DNA of 64,000 nt from Planctomycetaceae bacterium (GCA_021201355.1 JAJQFC010000024.1:206-64205), one strand, 5' to 3'. Positions 4,429 through 62,762 are shown, counted from the first letter of the stretch. The notes: a model not told the origin generated them from the sequence alone. Program-made: numbers and translations.

Positions 4429-5475
4429 TTACTTGCCCGCCGCCATTTCGTCCCGCGCCTGCCGAAACGGCGCCAGCACCCGGACCATGTCGTCGGGGAG
4501 CGGCGCCTCGAACGACAACCGTTCGTCCCGGCACGGGTGGCGGAACGACAGCCGCGCCGCGTGGAGGGCCTGACGGTCCAGGACCACGCCGCCGGGCGGG
4601 AACACGCCCCGCGCTTCACTGTGGCGGTACAGGGACAAGGCCCGACTGACCTCGCCCTCCGTCAGGACGGATCGCCGGCCATAGTCCTTGTCGCACAGGA
4701 CGGGCGAACCGACATGGGCCAGGTGGACCCGGGCCTGGTGGGTCCGGCCGGTCTCGAGGCGGCATTCGACCACGGCAACGGCGCCGTAGTTCTCCACCGT
4801 CTCGTACCGGGTCAGGCTCCGGCGTCCGCCCGACTTCATCATGGTGTGGAGCTTCCGGTTCCGGACCGATCGGCCGATATTCCCTTCCACCGTGCCGGAC
4901 AACGGCCGGGGCGACCCTTCCGTGATGGCGATATAGATCTTTTCCACTTCCCGGGTCATAAACTGTTCCATCAAACCGGCATGGGCCGGATCGTTCTTCG
5001 CCGCGACGAGGCAGCCGCTCGTGTCCATATCGAGGCGATGGACGATTCCCGGTCTGATCACCCCGCCGATTCCGGACAGGCTGTCCGCGTAATGGTGAAG
5101 AAGGGCATTTACGAGGGTGCCGCTCTGGTGACCCTGGGACGGATGGGTGACGATGCCCGGGCGTTTGTTCAGGACGACGATGTCGTCGTCCTCGTACAGG
5201 ATGTCCAGCGGGATGTCTTCCGCCACGGCGGCAAGCGGTTCTGGGGCCGGGACATGGACCTCGACCAGTTCGCCGCCCTTCAGTTTCATCGACGGTTTGA
5301 CCACGGCTTCGGCTATCCTGACATCGCCGTGATCGAACAGTTTTTTCAAATACGTCCGTGAAATGCCCGGCAGTTCCCGGGCCAGTGTCTGATCAAGCCG
5401 CTGGCCCGCTTGGTCGGCGGGTATGGCGAGGCGGTGGAAGTGTTCGGCCGAATTGTCCGGATTCATCGGTTGCAT
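4429..5475 (-). CDS. RluA-family 23S rRNA pseudouridine synthase (RluD-like)
   Basis: S4-like N-terminus and catalytic motif HRLDMDTSGCLV. 348 aa. Confidence 0.85.
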   Translation of the reverse strand: MQPMNPDNSAEHFHRLAIPADQAGQRLDQTLARELPGISRTYLKKLFDHGDVRIAEAVVKPSMKLKGGELVEVHVPAPEPLAAVAEDIPLDILYEDDDIVVLNKRPGIVTHPSQGHQSGTLVNALLHHYADSLSGIGGVIRPGIVHRLDMDTSGCLVAAKNDPAHAGLMEQFMTREVEKIYIAITEGSPRPLSGTVEGNIGRSVRNRKLHTMMKSGGRRSLTRYETVENYGAVAVVECRLETGRTHQARVHLAHVGSPVLCDKDYGRRSVLTEGEVSRALSLYRHSEARGVFPPGGVVLDRQALHAARLSFRHPCRDERLSFEAPLPDDMVRVLAPFRQARDEMAAGK

Positions 5476-8368: not shown

Positions 8369-9985
8369 ATGCCAGACGCAGCCGCAAACGGGAATGTGGA
8401 ATCCGGCGGGTCCTCGGACGAGGTCGTGCGGGAACTCACGCAGAAGCAGCAGGACCTCACCGAGGCCATGCAGCGGCTTATCCGTTTCCAACGCCAGACC
8501 CTCGTCCTTAAAAACGCGCCGTCCATCGATTCCGCCCTCGACACGATGGAATCGCTTTTAATCGAAGTTATCGATTTCGCCTACGCCAGCCTCCAGTACC
8601 GGTCGGAAAACGGCATCTTTTCGCCGCTCCGGCAGATTTGCCCGGACGATATCCACCTCGACTATCCCCTTATGGAATGGGTCATGGGCACGCAGGAGGT
8701 GTCTGTCCTGCCGATAGACATCCACATGGAGGACTGCAACCTCCGGTCGCTCCTCTTCCTGCCGTTCGGGTTCCACCACATCATGCTTCTCTGGCTCGAA
8801 CAGGATACCGACGCCTTTACCCAGGAGCAGGAGGCGCTCCTCTCCATCCTGTCCCGGGAGATGGCGTCCGTCCTCGATTCGCACCACTACCGGATCAGGC
8901 TCGAAAAGACCAGGGCGGCAATGTCCGACATTATCGAATCGGTCCCGCTCGGCCTCCTTGCCCTCGATCACTAGGACAAGGTGCAGATGATCAATTCCAC
9001 CGCCGAGATCGCCCTCGACATCCGCCGTCAGGACGCGGTCGGCGCCGACTTCCACGAGGCGCTTCCGGAAAAGGTCGCCGACCTCATAGACAACTTGGAA
9101 AACACCGGCAGCATCGAGGAAGCCGAACTCGCCATCAACAAACCGGGCCGGGACAGCCAGTACCTCGGCCTCACCATCTCGCCGATGCGGAGCGAGGACG
9201 GTTCCAGCAAGTCCGGGCAGGTCGTCGTCTGCCGCGACCTCCAACTGTCCCGGGAAGTCCAGAAGCTCCGCGAACTGGACGCGATGAAAAACGACTTCCT
9301 CTCCCTCGTCACCCACAAACTGCGGACGCCCCTGACGTCCATCATGGCCTATTCGGAAACGCTCCTCATGGACGAGGAAGGCGAGGTTCCCGGGGAGTGG
9401 CGGGAATACATCACCATCATCCATTCCGAAGGCCGCCGCCTCTGCCGCCTCATTGACGACGTCCTCGATCTCACCCGCATGGAAGCGGGCAAGATGTCGT
9501 ACGACTACGAGACGCAGGATCCGAACGAGATCATCGGCGCCGTCGTCATGTCCCTGACGCCGCAACTCGAGGAAAAATGCCACCACCTCGAACTCGATCT
9601 GGACGAAAACGTCGGCGACTGCCGCCTCGCCGTCGACCGGATTACCCAGGTCTTGACGAACATCTTCAGTAACGCCATCAAGTACACCGACGCCGGCGGC
9701 ACCATCGTCATTTCGTCGAAGCGGGCCGAACCGTTCCCGGAATCGTCGACCCCGACTCTCCTCATCACGGTGAAGGACAACGGCATCGGCATTGCGCCGG
9801 AAAATCTGGACCGGGTGTTTTCGAAATTCGAAATGGTGGAATCGGTTAAGCACCACACCTCGGGGACCGGCCTCAGCATGGCCATCTGCCGGCAGATTGT
9901 CGAGGAAGGCCACGGCGGGAAAATCTGGCTCGAAAGCGAACTTGGCCACGGCACCACGGTGAATGTGCAGATTCCGGTGGCATGA
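8369..9985 (+). pseudogene. PAS-type sensor histidine kinase interrupted by one in-frame TAG
   Basis: One continuous frame-2 reading frame, broken only by TAG at 8972-8974 (ORF-track pieces 8369-8974 and 8981-9985). H-box SLVTHKLRTPLTS, N box NAIKYT, G1 DNGIGI and G2 GTGLSM. The stop falls inside the PAS-like start (SVPLGLLALDH*DKVQMINSTAE). Confidence 0.7.
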
Positions 9986-29257: not shown

Positions 29258-29552
29258 TTTTTTTACTAATAATTTTTTATTGATAAAATTCTATTGATAT
29301 TTGATCAATCAAACTTTTTTCCACACTCTTCCGCGTTTTGATGGTAAATATACCTATCTTCTTTCACGTCAAACCCTTCTTACCAGAGGGGACCAGCCGG
29401 ACCTTCCCCACTCCTCCGCCTCCGGCACTTCCGGCCAGTTTTATTCGGAGATTTTTTACCGATATTTTTTTACTGATTGATTGACAAAAGGGTTACGCGT
29501 GATATACTGGTAACTATATGATAACATTTTTATTGATAACTTTTTACCGATA
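29258..29552. promoter_or_regulatory. AT-rich divergent control region with seven T-tract + AYYGATW units in three clusters at 14-bp spacing
   Basis: Heptamers ACTAATA 29265, ATTGATA 29279, ATTGATA 29293; ACCGATA 29458, ACTGATT 29472; ATTGATA 29532, ACCGATA 29546. Six of the seven are preceded by T5-7 (the 29293 copy is not). Within each cluster, neighbours are exactly 14 bp apart. Confidence 0.6.
29481..29508 (+). promoter_or_regulatory. sigma70-type promoter for the fumarase operon
   Basis: TTGACA (29481-29486), 16 nt, TATACT (29503-29508). Confidence 0.6.
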
Positions 29553-33412: not shown

Positions 33413-35365
33413 TTATCGGGTGGCCGCCTCGTCCTCGCTACTGTGGGCGTTCATGTTCGGCACCGGTTCCAACGAAAGGTGAGGCACGCCTTCCGAAGCC
33501 TGATCGGCCGCGCCCTCCACCGCCTTCACGATGGTCTCGTCCGTACTGTATTGCCGGACAATGTCCATGAATTCCTCGCCGGTGATTGTCTCGTGTTCGA
33601 GGAGGAAATCGGCGAGACGGTGGAGAAGGTCCATATTTCCCTTCAAAACTTCAACCGCCTTGTCGTGGCCTGACTTGACTATCTGGATAACCTTTTCATC
33701 AATCCGCGAACCGGTCTCGTCCGAACAGTTCAGGCCGGGGTCGCCCCCGAGGTACCGGTTCGTCATCACTTCCATCGCCGTCATGCCGAATTCGTCTGTC
33801 ATGCCGAACCGCGCCACCATGGACCGGGCCAGTTTCGTCATCTGTTCGATATCGTTGGCGGCGCCGGAGGTGGCGGTGTTGAAGACGAGTTCCTCCGCCG
33901 CCCGGCCGCCGGCGAAGGTGGCGATGCGGCCGAGGAGCTGCTCCCGCGTCATGAGGAACCGCTCCTTTTCGTCCACCTGCATGGTATAGCCGAGGGCGCC
34001 GGACGACCGGGGAACGATGGTGATTTTATGCACAGGCGCCGCGTCCGTCACCTTGGCGGCGACGAGGGCGTGGCCAATTTCATGGTACGACACCATGCGT
34101 TTTTCCTCGGGCGAAATCACCGTGCTCTTCCGCTGATACCCGGCGATGACCACCTCGACGGATTCCATCAGATCTTCCTGGGATACCCGGTCCCGCCCCT
34201 CACGCACCGCCCGGAGCGCGCCTTCGTTAATGATGTTTTCCAGTTCCGCCCCGGACGCGCCGGCGGTGGCCCGGGCAATAAAGTTCAAATCGATGTTGTC
34301 GGCCATTTTGACGCCCTTCGCGTGGACGCGGAGAATGGCTTCGCGGCCGACCAGATCCGGCAGTTCCACCGGAATCCGCCGGTCGAACCGGCCCGGCCGG
34401 AGGAGGGCCGGATCGAGGGATTCCGGGCGGTTGGTGGCGGCGAGGATGACGACGCCCTTGCAGCCGTCGAAGCCGTCCATCTCGGCGAGGAGCTGGTTGA
34501 GGGTCTGTTCCCGTTCGTCGTTGCCGCCGGGCATGCCGCCGCTGTCGCGCTTTTTGCCGATGGTGTCGATTTCGTCGATAAAAATGATGCACGGCGCCTT
34601 CTCCGTCGCCTGCTTGAAGAGGTCGCGGACCTTGGCCGCGCCCATGCCGACAAACATTTCGACAAACTCCGACCCGGATATGGAGAAGAACGGCACATGC
34701 GCCTCTCCGGCCACCGCCCGGGCGAGGAGAGTCTTGCCGGTGCCGGGAGGCCCGACGAGGAGGGCGTCTTTCGGGAGGACGGCGCCGATGGCGGAGTATT
34801 TGTCCGGGGAATGGAGGAAGTCGACGATTTCCCGGAGGGCGTCCTTGGCTTCGTCCTGGCCGGCGACGTCGTCGAAGCGTTTGCCGGTTTCGGATTCGGC
34901 GTAGATTTTGGCGTTGGACTTGCCGAGAGTCAGGGCGTTTTTCCCGCCGAAACTTTTCTGAAAGCCGCGCGCCAGCTATTGCCCGATCAGGATAAAAATG
35001 AACAGGGGCAAAATCCATGACAGGAGAAAACTCACTATCGGCGAGGTCTGGTGCGGTACGACCCGGGTAAACTTCACACCCTGCGTGTGGAGCCGGTCGA
35101 CGAGATCCGCGTCCTGCCAGGCGCCGGTGGAGTTAAGGACCGGTTCGCCTTCCTCGTTCTCCGTTTCATAGAGGATGCGATCGTCCTCGAGCGTCACCTC
35201 CCGAACGTTCCCCGCATCGAGTTCGGTGAGAAAGGTGCCGTAATCGACCTCATGAACCTTCGGTTTGGTGATGGCCGGAAACAGGAGCGTATTCATGAGC
35301 ATGAGGGCGATAAGAAGAAACATGAAATAGGGGATCGGCTGTTTCTTCGGCGAGTCTTCCAGCAT
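33413..35365 (-). pseudogene. ftsH: ATP-dependent zinc metalloprotease FtsH interrupted by one in-frame TAG
   Basis: Single frame of 651 codons (including the terminal stop), broken only by TAG at 34976-34978 just after TM2 (...LFIFILIGQ*LARGFQKSFGG...). Walker A GPPGTGKT, Walker [31 protein letters not shown] and HEIGH are all intact. ORF-track pieces are 34976-35365 and 33413-34714. Confidence 0.8.
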
Positions 35366-44241: not shown

Positions 44242-44733
44242 ATGGCCAAGGCAATACGGCGAACCAAAAAGACCCGGATACGTGACGAGGCCGGACCGGA
44301 ATGGCAACGGTATTTCGACCAGGTGAAATGGCGTCGCGAACGATTGACCAGTCCGAAATACCGGCCGCTGGTTATCTGTCGTTACGAGGTGGATGGGGTC
44401 GAGCGGGTGGTGGCGCGGCCGAAAAGCTTTCCGACGCCGGTAAAAAAAATCGTCGAAAAAGTGGTGAACCTTAAAGCGCTTGGCATTGCAATAAACATTG
44501 AAAGTATACGTGAGGCTTGGACGGCGGTGGTGGGTGAGGAAATCGCCAAGGATACCGGGCTGTATTCCTTCAAGAACGGCATTGTCACCATTGACGTTTA
44601 TTCGCCTACCCTGTTTCAGGAACTACGTGCCTTTTACGCCGACGGCATCCAGAAAGATCTTCGCGACAAATGGCCGCTTTCCGTCCCTTTGGTTGAGGTT
44701 AAATATCGTTTGGCCCGAAAACAGAAGTTATGA
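44242..44733 (+). CDS. DUF721 (DciA-like) protein
   Basis: C-terminal AWTAVVGEEIAKDTGLYSFKNGIVTIDVYSPTLFQELRAF matches the DUF721 pattern. Sits directly after dnaN. Confidence 0.7.
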   Translation: MAKAIRRTKKTRIRDEAGPEWQRYFDQVKWRRERLTSPKYRPLVICRYEVDGVERVVARPKSFPTPVKKIVEKVVNLKALGIAINIESIREAWTAVVGEEIAKDTGLYSFKNGIVTIDVYSPTLFQELRAFYADGIQKDLRDKWPLSVPLVEVKYRLARKQKL

Positions 44734-45860
44734 CCATAGCGACGTCACCAGGATTATATGTACACATCCCGTTCTGTCGGGCCCGGTGCGGCTATTGCAC
44801 CTTTACCAGTAGCGTCTATTCAAAAGAAACCGCCGACCGTTACGTCGCGGCGCTGTGCCGGGAGGTGGCGGCCAAAGACATCGTCCTGCCATCAACCGTC
44901 TTTATCGGCGGCGGCACGCCGACCGCCTTGTCAATGGCGCAACTGGACCGCGTGCTGGCCGTCCTTCCGGAACCCGCCCCCGGCGCCGAATATACCTGCG
45001 AAGTCAATCCGGACACGGCGACGCGGGAAAAGTTGGCGCTCCTCCGGAGCTATGGCGTCAACCGTCTGTCGTTCGGCGTCCAGACATTCTCGCCAGATGG
45101 TTTACGGGTGCTGGGGCGCTGCCACGACAGTCAGACGGCGGCTGAGGCTGTGACTATGGCCCTCGAAATGGGGTTCCCCGCGGTTAACCTTGACCTTATT
45201 CACGGCTGGCCCGGACAAACCGAAGCCTTTCTGCTTTCCGATTTGGAACAGGCAATCGGCTTGGGCGTTCACCACCTCTCGACGTATTCCCTGATTCTGG
45301 ACGAATCGGCATCACGATACGAGTATTTGTCCGGACTGTTAGGCCATGCCGACAGCGATTCCGAGCGGTTCGGGGAATTTTTTCAAACCAGCCACGACTA
45401 TCTTACCAGCCACCAATTCAAGCATTACGAAACAAGCAACTACGCGAGACCGGGTTTTATTTGCCGTCATAATTGGAACATCTGGCGTGGCGGGGAGTAT
45501 TGGGGAATCGGCCTCGCCGCCCACTCGCACCATCAGGGAAGGCGTTATGCGACGACCGGAGATATGACCGCATATCTCGAAAACGCCGGAATGCCGTCAA
45601 ACCTTGAGTCATTTTCGGAAACCCTCGACGACGAGAGGAAAGCGAGGGAGACCGCCGTATTTTGGCTTCGGTTGTATGAGGGAATCGACCTGGCCGAATT
45701 TTCCCACCAGACCGGATTCGACTTCTTTGACCTGTATGCCACTGTGGCACCTCCGCTCCTGGCCAAAGGCTGGCTGGAACATTCCGCCGACCACAGCCAT
45801 ATTCGCGTTCCCGAAAAACTCCAATCGGTATTGGACACCGTTCTGGTTGAACTGATTTAA
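44730..45860 (+). CDS. hemW: radical SAM heme chaperone HemW (HemN-like)
   Basis: LYVHIPFCRARCGYCTF CxxxCxxC motif and the HemN-like fold. ATGA overlap with the upstream gene. Confidence 0.85.
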   Translation: MTIATSPGLYVHIPFCRARCGYCTFTSSVYSKETADRYVAALCREVAAKDIVLPSTVFIGGGTPTALSMAQLDRVLAVLPEPAPGAEYTCEVNPDTATREKLALLRSYGVNRLSFGVQTFSPDGLRVLGRCHDSQTAAEAVTMALEMGFPAVNLDLIHGWPGQTEAFLLSDLEQAIGLGVHHLSTYSLILDESASRYEYLSGLLGHADSDSERFGEFFQTSHDYLTSHQFKHYETSNYARPGFICRHNWNIWRGGEYWGIGLAAHSHHQGRRYATTGDMTAYLENAGMPSNLESFSETLDDERKARETAVFWLRLYEGIDLAEFSHQTGFDFFDLYATVAPPLLAKGWLEHSADHSHIRVPEKLQSVLDTVLVELI

Positions 45861-47187: not shown

Positions 47188-47730
47188 ATGTCAACGCAAG
47201 CATCGGTACGCATGAACAAGGTGGCCGACAAGGCCGGGACCGAACCCGACGTCGTCGCCGCCGTGCGGAAATGGAAATCGAAACGGGGCAGCCTCATCAT
47301 GGTGCTCCACGAGATCCAGAACGCCCGCGGTTATGTCCCCCGCGACGTCGCGCTGTACCTGTCCCGGGAACTGGACGTCCCCCTGGCGCGGATCTACGAG
47401 GCCCTGACCTTCTACCACTATTTCAAGCTTGAACCGCCCGGCAAGGCCATCATCTCCGTTTGCACCGGCACTGCCTGCTATCTCAAGGGTTCCCAGGCGC
47501 TGGTGGACGAATTCGCCCGGGAGACCGGCGCGCCGGTCGGCGGTTCCACCGAGGACAAGCTATTCCACCTCCAATGCGTCCGCTGTGTCGGCTGCTGCGG
47601 CCTGGCGCCGGTGGCTATCGTCAACGGGAAGACCTACGGCAAATTGACGCCACCCGACATCAAGAAAATCGTCCATGAATGGCGCGAACACTTCGCCGGC
47701 GATGCGCCCGAAGAAAAGACGACGGAATAA
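47188..47730 (+). CDS. NuoE-like 2Fe-2S subunit of a multimeric [FeFe]-hydrogenase (HydC/HndA-like)
   Basis: LHEIQNARGYVP..., CTGTACYLKG and CVRCVGCCGLAP. GGAGG SD. Confidence 0.85.
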   Translation: MSTQASVRMNKVADKAGTEPDVVAAVRKWKSKRGSLIMVLHEIQNARGYVPRDVALYLSRELDVPLARIYEALTFYHYFKLEPPGKAIISVCTGTACYLKGSQALVDEFARETGAPVGGSTEDKLFHLQCVRCVGCCGLAPVAIVNGKTYGKLTPPDIKKIVHEWREHFAGDAPEEKTTE

Positions 47731-48019: not shown

Positions 48020-49693
48020 ATGCCCAAGGTCGACCTCAAGGAAATTCGCGAAAAGGAACTGGCCAAACAAAAGGCGTTCAAAGCGCGCCTGTTTGTCTGC
48101 GCCTCAACCGGCTGCGTCGCCTCCGGCTGCAAGGAAGTGATGGCCGCCGTCACGGAAGACCTCAAGTCCCACGGCCTCGACAAGGAAGTGCAGATCGTCC
48201 CCACCGGCTGCATGGGCCTGTGCAGCCACGGCCCGCTCATCCGCGCCGAAGTGCCGGGCCAGTAGCCCGTCCTCTACACCGAAATGGACGGCATGCTCGC
48301 CCGCCTCATGGTGGCGGAACACCTGGAACCGGCCATCCGCCGCCCGGAGACGTTCACCGGCGCGCCCGAGTTTTTGAAAGACCACACCCTCAGCCTCGAC
48401 ACGCCGTTCTTCACCGATCAGGTCAAGGTCGTTCTTGCCAATTCCGGCCACATCGTCCCGGAAAGCATAGACGACTACATCGCCGACGGCGGCTACGACG
48501 CCTGGCAGCGCGTCGTCACCTCGATGACGCCGCAGGACGTCATCCGGGAAATCACCGAATCCGGCCTTCGTGGCCGCGGCGGCGGCGGCTTCCCCACCGG
48601 CAAAAAGTGGGAACTCACGGCCCAGGTCCAGAATGAGGAAAAGTTCATCATCTGTAACGGCGACGAAGGCGACCCGGGCGCCTATATGGACCGGTCCATC
48701 CTTGAAGGCAATCCCCACGCCGTCATCGAAGGCATGCTCATCGCCGGCTTCGCCATCGGCGCGACCAGCGGCTGGTTCTACGTTCGGGCCGAATACCCGC
48801 TGGCGGTCGAACGCCTCGACAAGGCCCTGAAAGCGGCCCGCCGCTACAACCTTCTCGGCAAGGACATCCTCGGGACCGGCCGCGATCTCGACCTGGAAAT
48901 CCGCCTCGGCGCCGGCGCTTTTGTCTGCGGCGAAGAAACCGCCCTTATCGCCTCTATCGAAGGCAAGCGCGGTTCCCCGACGCCGCGTCCGCCGTACCCG
49001 TCCGTCAAGGGTCTATGGGGCATGCCGAGCTGTGTGAATAATGTCGAAACGCTTGCCAACGTCCCGACCATCATGAACCGCGGCGGCGCCTGGTTCGCCT
49101 CGATGGGGACGGAAACGTCCAAGGGAACGAAGGTGTTCGCCCTCACCGGCAAGGTCAAACACTCCGGTCTTATCGAGGTGCCGATGGGGATATCGCTGAA
49201 ACGAATTGTCGAATCCATCGGCGGCGGCACGTCGACGGGGAAAAAGATTAAAGCGGTGCAGACCGGCGGCCCGTCCGGCGGCGTCATTCCGGAAAAGGAA
49301 ATGGATCTGCCGGTATGCTACGACCACCTGAAAAAGGTCGGGTCAATCATGGGGTCTGGCGGCATGATCGTCATGGACGAAGACGACGACATGGTCGACA
49401 TCGCCAAGTTCTACCTGGGATTCACGGTTGACGAAAGTTGCGGTAAATGCGCTCCCTGCCGCATCGGCGGCAAACAGCTTCTTCTTCTTCTCGAAAAGAT
49501 CGCCGACGGCAAGGCGGTTGAGGAGGACATCGAGGATTTGAAGCGCCTCGCCGTTTCCATGAAGAAGGCCTCCCTGTGCGGCCTTGGCCAGACCGCGCCG
49601 AACCCGGTGCTGTCGACCCTCAATTTCTTCCTGGACGAATATCAGGCGCGGCTCACCACCAAGGAGGCGTTGGCGGAGAAGGATAAGGCGTAA
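48020..49693 (+). pseudogene. NuoF-like flavoprotein subunit of [FeFe]-hydrogenase (HydB/HndC-like) interrupted by one in-frame TAG
   Basis: Single frame 2 reading frame, broken only by TAG at 48263-48265. The break is inside the N-terminal thioredoxin-like 2Fe-2S domain, after both Cys pairs (CASTGC, CMGLC): ...GPLIRAEVPGQ*PVLYTEMDG... Downstream, GRGGGGFPTGKKW and SCGKCAPCR are intact. ORF-track pieces are 48020-48265 and 48284-49693. No SD precedes ATG 48284. Confidence 0.75.
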
Positions 49694-49840: not shown

Positions 49841-51586
49841 ATGATAACCGCAACCATCAACGGCATCCAGGTGAGCGTCGAACCTGGTACCAGCATATAC
49901 AAGGCCGCGCACCAGGCGCAGGTCAACATCCCCACCCTTTGCTATCACCCGGACCTGGCGCCGACCGCCGCCTGCGGCATCTGCGTCGTCAAGGTGAAGG
50001 GCGCCGCCAACATGGTCCGCGCCTACACGACGCCGGTGGCGCAGGGCATGGAAATCGTCACCCAGGATCCGGAAATCGTCCAGGTCCGCCGCTCGGTTCT
50101 CGAGATGATCCTGTCGAACCACCCGAACGAATGCCTCACCTGCCTCCGCTCCGGCGAGTGCGAACTGCAAAACCTCGCCCGCGACTTCGGCATCTACAAT
50201 TCGAAGTTGCCGAAAATCATCACCGAACGGGAAAAGGACGCCTCAACCAAGTCCATCGTCCTCGACTCCCGGAAGTGCATTCGCTGCGGCCGCTGCACCC
50301 AGGTCTGCCAGGAAATGCAGAACGTCTGGGCCCTGTCCATCGAACACCGCGGCCTCGACGCCGTCGTCCAGCCGGCCGGCGACATCGAACTGGCGGAAAA
50401 TCCCTGCGTCCGCTGCGGCCAGTGTTCGGCCCACTGCCCGGTCGGCGCCATTTACGAATACGACGAAACCGAACTGGTGCGGAAAGCGCTTATGGATCCG
50501 GAAATGCACTGCATTGTGCAAATCGCTCCGGCGGTCCGCGTCTCCATCGGCGAATCGTTCGGGTTCGCGCCGGGTAAGAACCTTACCGGCAAACTCTACA
50601 CCGCCCTCCGCCGCATGGGCTTCGACCAGGTGTTCGACACCAACTTCGGCGCCGACGTCACCATCATGGAAGAGGCGTCGGAACTGGTCGAGCGGATAAA
50701 GTCCGGCAAGGGGGCGATTCCCCTCATCACCACCTGCTGTCCGTCGTGGGTCGACTTTATGGAGAAATTCGACGCCGACATGATTGAGTATTTCTCGAGC
50801 TGCAAGTCGCCGCAGGCCATTGTCGGCGCGCTGTCGAAGAGTTATTACGCCGAAAAGGCGGGGATACCGGTCGACAAGATCTTCATGGTGTCCATAATGC
50901 CCTGTACGGCGAAGAAGTTTGAAATCGTTCGGGCCAAGGAAATGTTCTCGTCCGGCCACCAGGACATTGACGTCTCCCTGACGACGCGGGAACTGTCCCG
51001 CATGCTGAACCAGGCCGGCATCGAATTCGCCTCCCTCCCGGACGGCCAGGCCGATTCGCCGCTCGGGCAGTACACCGGCGCCGCCACCATCTTCGGCGAG
51101 ACCGGTGGCGTGATGGAGGCGGCGCTCCGCACCGCCTACCACATGATTACCGGTAAGGAACTTGACCAACTTGAATTCGAGTCCATCCACACCATGGACG
51201 GCATCAAAGAACTCGCCATCGACATCGACGGCCTGAACCTCCGCATCGCCGTCGCCCACGGCCTCCGGCATGTGGAAGAGGTTATTGAACGCGTCCGAAC
51301 CGCCTTGGAAAAAGGCGAAGAAGTGCCGTGGCACTTTATTGAAGTGATAGCCTGTCCCGGCGGCTGCGTCGGCGGCGGCGGCCAGTTCTGGGGTGTCAAC
51401 GACGGCATCCGGAAGATGCGGGCGAAAGGCCTCAGTGAAGACGATCGCGGCAGCGCCCTCCGGCGGAGCCATGAAAATCCGGATGTCAAAAAACTGTACG
51501 AAGAGTTCATCGGCGCGCCCCTCAGCGAGAAGGCGCACAAATTATTCCACACCCATTACCAGCCGCGCAGCCAGTACCGGCGGTAA
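49841..51586 (+). CDS. hydA: [FeFe]-hydrogenase catalytic subunit
   Basis: N-terminal 2Fe-2S and 4Fe-4S domains. H-cluster motifs TTCCPSWV, MPCTAKKFE and EVIACPGGCVGGGGQ. Confidence 0.95.
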   Translation: MITATINGIQVSVEPGTSIYKAAHQAQVNIPTLCYHPDLAPTAACGICVVKVKGAANMVRAYTTPVAQGMEIVTQDPEIVQVRRSVLEMILSNHPNECLTCLRSGECELQNLARDFGIYNSKLPKIITEREKDASTKSIVLDSRKCIRCGRCTQVCQEMQNVWALSIEHRGLDAVVQPAGDIELAENPCVRCGQCSAHCPVGAIYEYDETELVRKALMDPEMHCIVQIAPAVRVSIGESFGFAPGKNLTGKLYTALRRMGFDQVFDTNFGADVTIMEEASELVERIKSGKGAIPLITTCCPSWVDFMEKFDADMIEYFSSCKSPQAIVGALSKSYYAEKAGIPVDKIFMVSIMPCTAKKFEIVRAKEMFSSGHQDIDVSLTTRELSRMLNQAGIEFASLPDGQADSPLGQYTGAATIFGETGGVMEAALRTAYHMITGKELDQLEFESIHTMDGIKELAIDIDGLNLRIAVAHGLRHVEEVIERVRTALEKGEEVPWHFIEVIACPGGCVGGGGQFWGVNDGIRKMRAKGLSEDDRGSALRRSHENPDVKKLYEEFIGAPLSEKAHKLFHTHYQPRSQYRR

Positions 51587-61715: not shown

Positions 61716-62762
61716 CTATAGGTCGATGTTTTCCGCGCAGGCGATATGTATCCGGGTATAGGCGATCTCATTGTCCGGCTTCCTGCCGCCCATGAGAAAA
61801 TTGGTCAGCACCGTCACCGGCAGCGAGCCCTGGAGATAGAGGTTCTGTTCAATAACGAAGTCGACCACCCGTTCCCGCAGAAGCCGGGCCGTCGTCTCGG
61901 ACACATCGTGGCAGACGACCCGCACCCGTCCGGCCCGGCCGCAGCGGCGAAGCGCTTCGGCGCAGCCGGGGACGCTTTCGTTGGCCATATAGATGGCGTC
62001 GGCGGCCGGGTGGTCGGCGAGGTAGCGGCCCACCCGTTCCAGCGTCACGTCGTAGTCGTTGTAACATTCGATAACCGTATCCGCCTCCGGGTCGCGGCCC
62101 AGTTCGGCCATGCGCTGGCAGAAACCTTCGACCCGGCGCCGGTGACCGTCGTATTCGCGGTTGCCGCAGGCGATCAGTATGGGCGAGGTCGCCGGCACCA
62201 GTTTGGCCATGATTTCCGCCGCGATCCGACCGCTTCGCCGGTCGTCCTGTCCGACAAAGCACATGCGGCCGCTGTCCGGAATGTCCGAGTTGAATGTCAC
62301 GACAGGGATCCCGTCCCGGACGAGGGCGAGGAGCCGGTTCCGGACCGGTTCGCTGTTACGGGCGCAGATGGCCAAGCCGCGAGCGCCGGCGGCGATGGCA
62401 TCGTCGACGGCTTCGACATATTCTTCGGGAAGGTCGGTGGCGCAGTGGGTGACGATGACGTCCATGCCGAAATCGGCCAGCTCGGCCCTGGCGTTTTCGA
62501 GGCCCCGGTCCACCTCTCAGCCAAACGAACCGGACCAGACCGGCATCACCACGGCTATCTTCATGCCCTTGTTTTTCAGGGCCAGGGCCCGGGCGGCCCG
62601 GTCCGGCGTGTAGTCGAGATCCCGCAACGCCGCCTCGACCCGCCGGCGCTTTTCCGGATTGACATTGGGCCGGCCGTGCAAGACCCGGTCGACAACGCCG
62701 CGGGACACCCCGGCATAGGCGGCTATTATTTTAATAGTCGGTTTCACGATTTGTTTTTCCAA
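61716..62762 (-). pseudogene. LacI-family transcriptional regulator interrupted by one in-frame TGA
   Basis: Single frame, broken only by TGA at 62517-62519 (...IAVVMPVWSGSFG*EVDRGLENARAEL...). N-terminal HTH (TIKIIAAYAGVSRGVVDRVLHG) and a sugar-binding-fold C-terminal part. ORF-track pieces are 62517-62762 and 61716-62513. Confidence 0.7.

Follow-up and report, generated by a model that had tools for sequence, protein, structure and literature searches.

The hydB gene of an [FeFe] hydrogenase operon is interrupted at codon 82 by an in-frame TAG, and this is probably a genuine, and very recent, CAG>TAG nonsense substitution that arose in one strain lineage of an uncultured anaerobic species of the Planctomycetota. 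From an analysis of the window (the whole 64-kb stretch of DNA under study) and its relatives, we judge the stop to be a commonplace nonsense allele of recent date, set in a mutation load that is out of the ordinary, and not a case of recoding or of a natural gene split. An ordinary amber nonsense mutation is an event of a known kind, and what is unusual is confined to the lineage's mutation load.

The amber codon and the hydB reading frame

The hydB region comprises the following features:

48020..48265, + strand: hydB 5′ fragment, 81 codons plus TAG, with a PF01257 match over residues 21–74
48263..48265, + strand: premature amber codon in hydB, CAG (Gln) to TAG by one C>T transition
48266..49693, + strand: hydB remainder, carrying the end of the thioredoxin-like domain, the FMN/NADH-binding region, SLBB and the NuoF [4Fe-4S] region (PF01512, PF10531, PF10589)

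The original prediction described two ORFs in the same frame, parted by nothing other than a TAG, and this is confirmed: positions 48263–48265 read TAG in the context CAG TAG CCC, in frame within hydB on the forward strand, with ORFs of 81 aa (48020–48265) and 469 aa (48284–49693) on either side of codon 82. Translated through the stop, the sequence gives a single NuoF-like protein of 557 aa (approximately 557–558 codons), which is 98 % identical to its closest homologue, P0001, and aligns to it without gaps both before and after the stop. Codon-position GC is alike upstream and downstream of the TAG (GC3 of 0.92 vs 0.90), and the 475 open codons that follow it specify exactly the residues of P0124, the 469-aa product that the NCBI annotation begins at Met89.

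With regard to translation signals, AGGAAG can be read upstream of the hydB start, and a motif scan found AGGA/GGAG ahead of the hydC and hydA starts. The same scan found no AGGA/GGAG-type motif upstream of the ATG at 48284 (Met89), in agreement with the earlier proposal that this codon has no Shine–Dalgarno sequence. Met89 is the first in-frame ATG after the stop, and the sole plausible site of re-initiation.

Homologous proteins and the fold across the stop

A search of a collection of 5.8 billion proteins gave thousands of matches, from which 31 with 64–98 % identity were aligned. Every one of these (31/31) is an unsplit polypeptide of 550–584 aa, and none has a boundary at the position of the stop; together with the ungapped alignment to P0001, this indicates that the two ORFs are no chance juxtaposition. 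The alignment column that holds the stop is variable (Q/A/E/K/D/P), with Q in the nearest relatives, and C27, C32, C64 and C68, the ligands of the N-terminal [2Fe-2S] cluster, are invariant. Further along, a Nuo51-type FMN/NADH-binding domain (PF01512, E=1.7e-44, residues 178–349) and the NuoF [4Fe-4S] region (PF10589, E=8.5e-30, residues 460–543) are both present, the latter having C474, C477 and C520 without variation and C480 in at least 90 % of the aligned homologues.

The best solved relatives are the HydB chains of HydABC hydrogenases, with 7q4v_B aligning unbroken over residues 21–550 (E=2e-189). It had been proposed that a single thioredoxin-like [2Fe-2S] domain is interrupted by the amber codon, and that the segment after the stop is its remaining strand and helix; the first proposal is supported by continuous alignment to 7q4v_B over residues 21–122, and the second by the AlphaFold model of P0001 (mean pLDDT of 87.7, and >90 over most of the N-terminal domain). 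In this model of a 98 %-identical homologue, strands at residues 74–77 and 84–86 and a helix at 91–107 all have pLDDT above 90, and residue 82 lies in a hairpin turn, which corresponds to a three-residue loop absent from 7q4v_B. The N-terminal domain is thus encoded in the hydB DNA, but in a frame broken by TAG at codon 82, with the model placing a strand and the final helix of the thioredoxin-like fold after the stop. The 81-aa fragment retains all four Cys ligands of the [2Fe-2S] cluster and, as judged from the same model, stops short of the domain's last strand and helix.

The interruption had also been considered as a possible natural boundary, at which a small HndB-like [2Fe-2S] protein ends and a NuoF-like protein with translation of its own begins, the two forming an active enzyme. 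Hnd-type hydrogenases, such as that of Desulfovibrio fructosovorans, do have a separate small HndB subunit, and the window is similar to these in that a small [2Fe-2S]-type polypeptide is encoded directly upstream of a NuoF-like gene; annotation by NCBI of a 469-aa product from Met89 likewise favours two genes. Unlike the Hnd-type arrangement, however, the boundary in the window is a strain-private, single-base nonsense change inside a domain, with neither start signals nor a counterpart amongst homologues. None of the 31 homologues, down to 64 % identity, is split, the solved HydB chains are fused, and the stop sits in an intradomain hairpin such that the last strand and helix go to the downstream piece. 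Furthermore, the ATG at 48284 has no independent ribosome-binding site, and a contig of the same species, at 99.6 % identity to the window, lacks the split and has CAG at codon 82. Due to the unsplit homologues, the unbroken fold and the signal-less ATG, a natural split is refuted, and we regard it as most improbable.

Relatives of the window and origin of the TAG allele

Four genomes of the genus were available for comparison. L004, a conspecific contig from the MAG GCA_965299525.1, matches 21.7 kb of the window at 99.61 % identity; L001 (MAG GCA_965299365.1) and L002 are from sister species, with approximately 89–90 % identity across the hyd genes and 77–90 % in other aligned blocks; and L011 (JAJBTL01, 'Planctomycetota bacterium U_126843'), the sole return of a genome-collection scan, is from a sister species at approximately 91 % identity. 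Codon 82 is CAG in all four, as it is in contigs from three sequencing runs (L014–L016), leaving TAG private to one strain amongst all of the relatives compared. As the outgroups L001 and L002 both have C, the T at 48263 is derived in the window.

The TAG allele itself, with its exact 81-aa product, is encoded in the Logan assemblies of SRR15221351, SRR15221328 and SRR15221319, whose contigs are 100, 99.96 and 100 % identical, respectively, to the window over 2–3.5 kb; the accession numbers of these runs lie close together, and the runs may stem from related samples, or even from a single DNA preparation made into several libraries. The same contigs also carry the other private variants of the window. 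Contigs with the CAG allele that bear the private variants of L004 (L014–L016) come from three further runs within this accession series (SRR15219679, SRR15219673 and SRR15219656). The sharing of private variants across run and MAG assemblies points to two genuine clades within the species, which differ in having TAG or CAG, and, at the level of assemblies, the presence of the same TAG in independent assemblies of three runs excludes a one-off assembly error.

A broader form of artefact must also be weighed, in which the genome has CAG, and both the T and the other stops of the window stem from damaged or amplified template (by cytosine deamination), from low coverage or from assembly. The source sequence is a MAG, C>T is a deamination-type change, and other MAG proteins within the HydB cluster (P0123, P0128) contain obvious clusters of errors, all of which would be in keeping with such an origin. 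Nevertheless, we consider it unlikely, as the TAG and its neighbouring private variants were assembled independently from three runs at 99.96–100 % identity, and as random damage to single molecules would not reach a consensus. In addition, derived alleles of the sister clade are common to a MAG of different accession and three runs, from which it follows that variants of this kind mark real lineages.

One such variant is R225Q in the HydB of the CAG clade (window 48692–48694; L004 10673–10675; also L014–L016), which replaces an Arg found at this position in all 31 homologues; its presence in one MAG and in the assemblies of three runs makes it a genuine marker of the lineage. Separately, the HydB copies P0122, P0123 and P0128, from other MAG/JGI sources, display odd clusters of substitutions (e.g. 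IREITESGLRG>SRESPEAGSSG) that resemble low-coverage errors, indicating that public assemblies of this genus vary in quality. Exact-protein look-ups with the 469-aa product, RecA and the N-terminal LacI fragment returned nothing useful, and a literature search on the run and assembly accessions was without result.

Other in-frame stops in the window

The window was scanned for stops with coding-type composition both before and after them, and three cases besides hydB were recovered:

8972..8974, + strand: TAG in a sensor histidine kinase (gene 8369–9985; PAS/HisKA/HATPase), within its PAS domain
34976..34978, − strand: TAG in ftsH (gene 35365..33413), directly past the second transmembrane helix
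62517..62519, − strand: TGA within the ligand-binding Peripla_BP_4 domain of a LacI-family regulator (gene 62762..61716)

The kinase stop falls at residue 202, with a Pfam PAS match (residues 185–290) that spans it. Relatives of 96–99 % identity (P0255 at 99 %) have Gln at this position, this is a second CAG>TAG change, and the TAG allele is present in the Logan assemblies of SRR15221351 and SRR15221332. The ftsH stop derives from TGG, with Trp in the nearest homologue (P0129) and an intact TGG in the L004 contig; here too the TAG allele is found in a Logan contig, from SRR15221351, at 100 % identity, and the gene is annotated by NCBI as two pieces of 129 and 497 aa. That the kinase and ftsH stops were likewise recovered from run assemblies is further evidence against an artefact. 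In the LacI-family regulator the stop is at residue 83, between a LacI HTH match (residues 10–55) and the bulk of a Peripla_BP_4 match (70–326) that spans the stop; a metagenome scan for this protein gave relatives of ≤36 % identity, none of which was informative on the ancestral codon of the TGA. Taken together, the window has at least four premature stops, a density of four amongst approximately 55 genes.

Two further candidates from the scan were false positives: translation around 5359–5361 gives no recognisable protein, and 45102–45104 is antisense to a radical-SAM gene (44730–45860). As regards ftsH, its best matches outside of related planctomycete MAGs are from Clostridia/Desulfosporosinus at 67–70 % identity, which is high for a cross-phylum comparison and suggests a horizontal origin for this gene copy, perhaps as a paralogue.

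Possible decoding of TAG

An in-frame TAG in an otherwise functional-looking gene is also what one sees with pyrrolysine or suppressor-based amber decoding, and programmed or tolerated read-through (via a suppressor tRNA, pyrrolysine or leaky termination) would leave full-length HydB, FtsH and kinase being made from functional genes. Three in-frame TAGs within 64 kb, one of them in ftsH, speak for this reading. A stop codon followed by C is a weak termination context, as is found at the hydB stop, and near-cognate read-through of UAG would probably insert Gln, which is the ancestral residue and would give back small amounts of wild-type protein.

The use of TAG in the rest of the window is difficult to accommodate with this. 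TAG terminates 17 of the 53 called ORFs, and for 14 of these it is the true gene end, including the conserved dnaN, lexA and a MatE gene, whose product lengths are equal in L001, L002 and L004. Unlike sites of pyrrolysine or suppressor decoding, the TAGs of the window are unconserved, make use of a common terminator and replace different amino acids (Gln, Gln and Trp), and there is an in-frame TGA besides; with different residues replaced and two stop codons involved, no single recoding rule fits. Orthologues of hydB have CAG, or encode A/E/K/D/P residues, in place of the TAG, sense codons are present in the conspecific strains and the sister species, and the site is a variable loop residue. 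The one tRNA in the 64-kb window is tRNA-Leu(UAA), the sole Rfam report, and neither pylT nor a suppressor tRNA was found within it. Read-through as the explanation is accordingly judged distinctly improbable. The narrower proposal that TAG has been reassigned to Gln was rejected on three grounds: the TAG in ftsH stands in for Trp, there is a TGA in frame as well, and many genes terminate with TAG.

Mutation spectrum and selection in the strain

Over 30 kb (positions 29500–59693), the window and L004/L008 differ by 116 transitions, 5 transversions and 2 indels. Once polarised with the two outgroups, L001 and L002, the changes number 32 G:C>A:T, 6 A:T>G:C and 1 transversion in the window, and 21 G:C>A:T, 2 A:T>G:C and 1 transversion in L004, with approximately 85 % of all polarised changes being G:C>A:T. 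Derived C>T changes prefer a following purine (G or A; 45/53, p=3e-4), and are also enriched after A. Repair loss, deaminase activity or methylation are all possibilities as the cause of this bias. An error tied to a methylation motif, either Dcm-like (CCWGG) or GCWGC, was rejected, as no single motif accounts for the C>T changes; CpG is not depleted in the window (observed/expected of 1.29).

The ratio of derived nonsynonymous to synonymous changes is 23:14 in the window and 12:8 in L004, against a neutral expectation for G:C>A:T changes in these genes of 55 % missense, 42 % synonymous and 2.75 % nonsense (57.7 %:42.3 %). Four nonsense changes were observed in the window, with approximately 2.1 expected under neutrality (P(≥4) of approximately 0.17). 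The mix of strain-private missense, synonymous and nonsense changes is indistinguishable from that produced by no selection, and the hydB stop belongs to this very recent set, on which selection has left no visible mark.

Premature stops in this strain accumulate at about the pace of neutral changes, on a background where constraint over the long term is strong. Nonsense changes at a neutral rate, and a stop in ftsH, are hard to reconcile with a thriving lineage. They are also typical of poor assemblies, for which an excess of internal stops is a known mark (Cooley & Wright 2024, PMC11017572), and the wholly unselected appearance of the private changes is a further point in favour of an artefact. 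Should the stops be artefactual, they would serve as a warning on the quality of this assembly; should they be real, the strain would be a case from nature of an uncultured anaerobe with hypermutation or with a mutational load that has not been purged. Within the latter, it is conceivable, though improbable in our estimation, that the lineage, and to a lesser extent the genus, undergoes hypermutation of a cytosine-deamination type, with stops appearing at the neutral rate, ftsH and similar genes included, and survival perhaps owed to partial amber/opal suppression. A lost repair function, a deaminase or the decay of 5-methylcytosine at CpR sites would be possible causes in that case, and hydB, ftsH and the kinase gene may yet give some full-length protein.

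By the preferred reading, that of a genuine recent nonsense substitution, the hydB stop would be a by-product of a deamination-like mutation load that has not yet been purged, and would be neither regulated nor programmed. Reportedly, the lacI amber sites of Coulondre and Miller arise by C>T at CAG or TGG codons. The window resembles such classical amber mutations, and also recent pseudogenes under weak selection, in having CAG>TAG twice and TGG>TAG once, in the intactness of the rest of each frame and in the G:C>A:T bias. It is unlike the classical ambers in the high density of its stops, in the strong constraint on the orthologues between species and in being an environmental genome.

The hydrogenase operon and predicted consequences of the stop

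The genes that flank hydB are as follows:

47188..47730, + strand: hydC, NuoE-like thioredoxin-like [2Fe-2S] subunit, 180 aa, intact (PF01257, E=7e-44)
49841..51586, + strand: hydA, [FeFe]-hydrogenase catalytic subunit, 581 aa (PF02906, PF02256), aligning to 8a6t_A and 7q4v_A

The order hydC-hydB-hydA is the same in L001, L002 and L004. Between-species dN/dS values are 0.027 for hydB, 0.04 for hydA and 0.03 for hydC, and such strong purifying selection indicates that the operon has long been needed.

In the strain itself, translation would end at hydB codon 82. The 81-aa fragment would keep its cluster cysteines on an incomplete fold, and would probably be unstable. Re-initiation at Met89, 18 nt downstream and without a Shine–Dalgarno sequence, could at best supply a little of a 469-aa core that has no [2Fe-2S] domain, and rare near-cognate read-through, probably with insertion of Gln, might leave a trace of full-length HydB; the long untranslated stretch may also reduce expression of hydA. 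With translation ending at codon 82, and only minor re-initiation or read-through to be expected, we infer that the hydrogenase is null or strongly impaired in this strain, and that pseudogenisation is in progress. The strain is probably unable to make a normal NADH-linked [FeFe] hydrogenase, unlike its close relatives, which affects metabolic inference from this MAG. Annotation pipelines give a 469-aa 'SLBB domain protein' at this locus, concealing the break in hydB.

The hydA reading frame is open in the window, and it too carries changes. C62Y (window 50024–50026), in both the window and L004, puts Tyr at the position of the fourth cysteine that ligates the N-terminal [2Fe-2S] cluster, where L001, L002, 8a6t_A and 7q4v_A all have Cys; being common to the conspecific L004, this change is older than the hydB stop. 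Strain-private changes in hydA (50231–51349) comprise six missense (K131E, S187N, P212L, W214R, H317Y and M503I) and no synonymous substitutions, with M503I falling in the H-cluster motif ExMACPGGC. Relaxed selection particular to the hyd operon was considered and rejected, as neighbouring genes are equally near-neutral despite the 6:0 ratio in hydA. The sister species represented by L001 has lesions of its own, with an in-frame TAG at codon 154 of hydA (L001 12282–12284; CAG elsewhere, by CCCAGG>CCTAGG) and C480R in HydB (L001 11438–11440), which changes a cysteine of the NuoF [4Fe-4S] cluster.

Cofactor domains of HydB in relation to known systems

In overall plan the window matches the HydABC hydrogenases: HydB, like 7q4v_B, has a Trx-like [2Fe-2S] domain (B2), an FMN/NADH Rossmann-like core, SLBB and the NuoF-type [4Fe-4S] site (B1), and its operon includes a NuoE-like HydC and an H-cluster HydA. 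It differs from HydB of those enzymes in ending at residue 557, as well as in its TAG at codon 82. A C-terminal domain holding a pair of [4Fe-4S] clusters is a feature of bifurcating HydB (PMC10021017; PMC9304861), and the definition of the electron-bifurcating Bfu family by Schut et al. 2022 includes a C-terminal 4Fe-4S ferredoxin-type domain in BfuB (IPR017896, clusters B3/B4; PMC9304861). There was no Pfam match to a C-terminal Fer4-type domain in the HydB of the window, which stops 7 residues past the region aligned to residue 533 of the 599-aa 7q4v_B; without the two-[4Fe-4S] domain, it falls outside the published Bfu definition. This absence of C-terminal B3/B4 is shared with non-bifurcating NADH-linked relatives, amongst them Hyd1ABC of Syntrophomonas wolfei and Nqo1 of complex I (PMC9304861). 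The non-bifurcating relatives are without B2–B5 altogether (PMC9304861), whereas the HydB of the window retains the N-terminal [2Fe-2S] domain. Its predicted cofactor set is intermediate between the bifurcating and the non-bifurcating types. The terminus of HydB (49670–49693) directly follows the NuoF [4Fe-4S] region, with the protein ending at residue 557.
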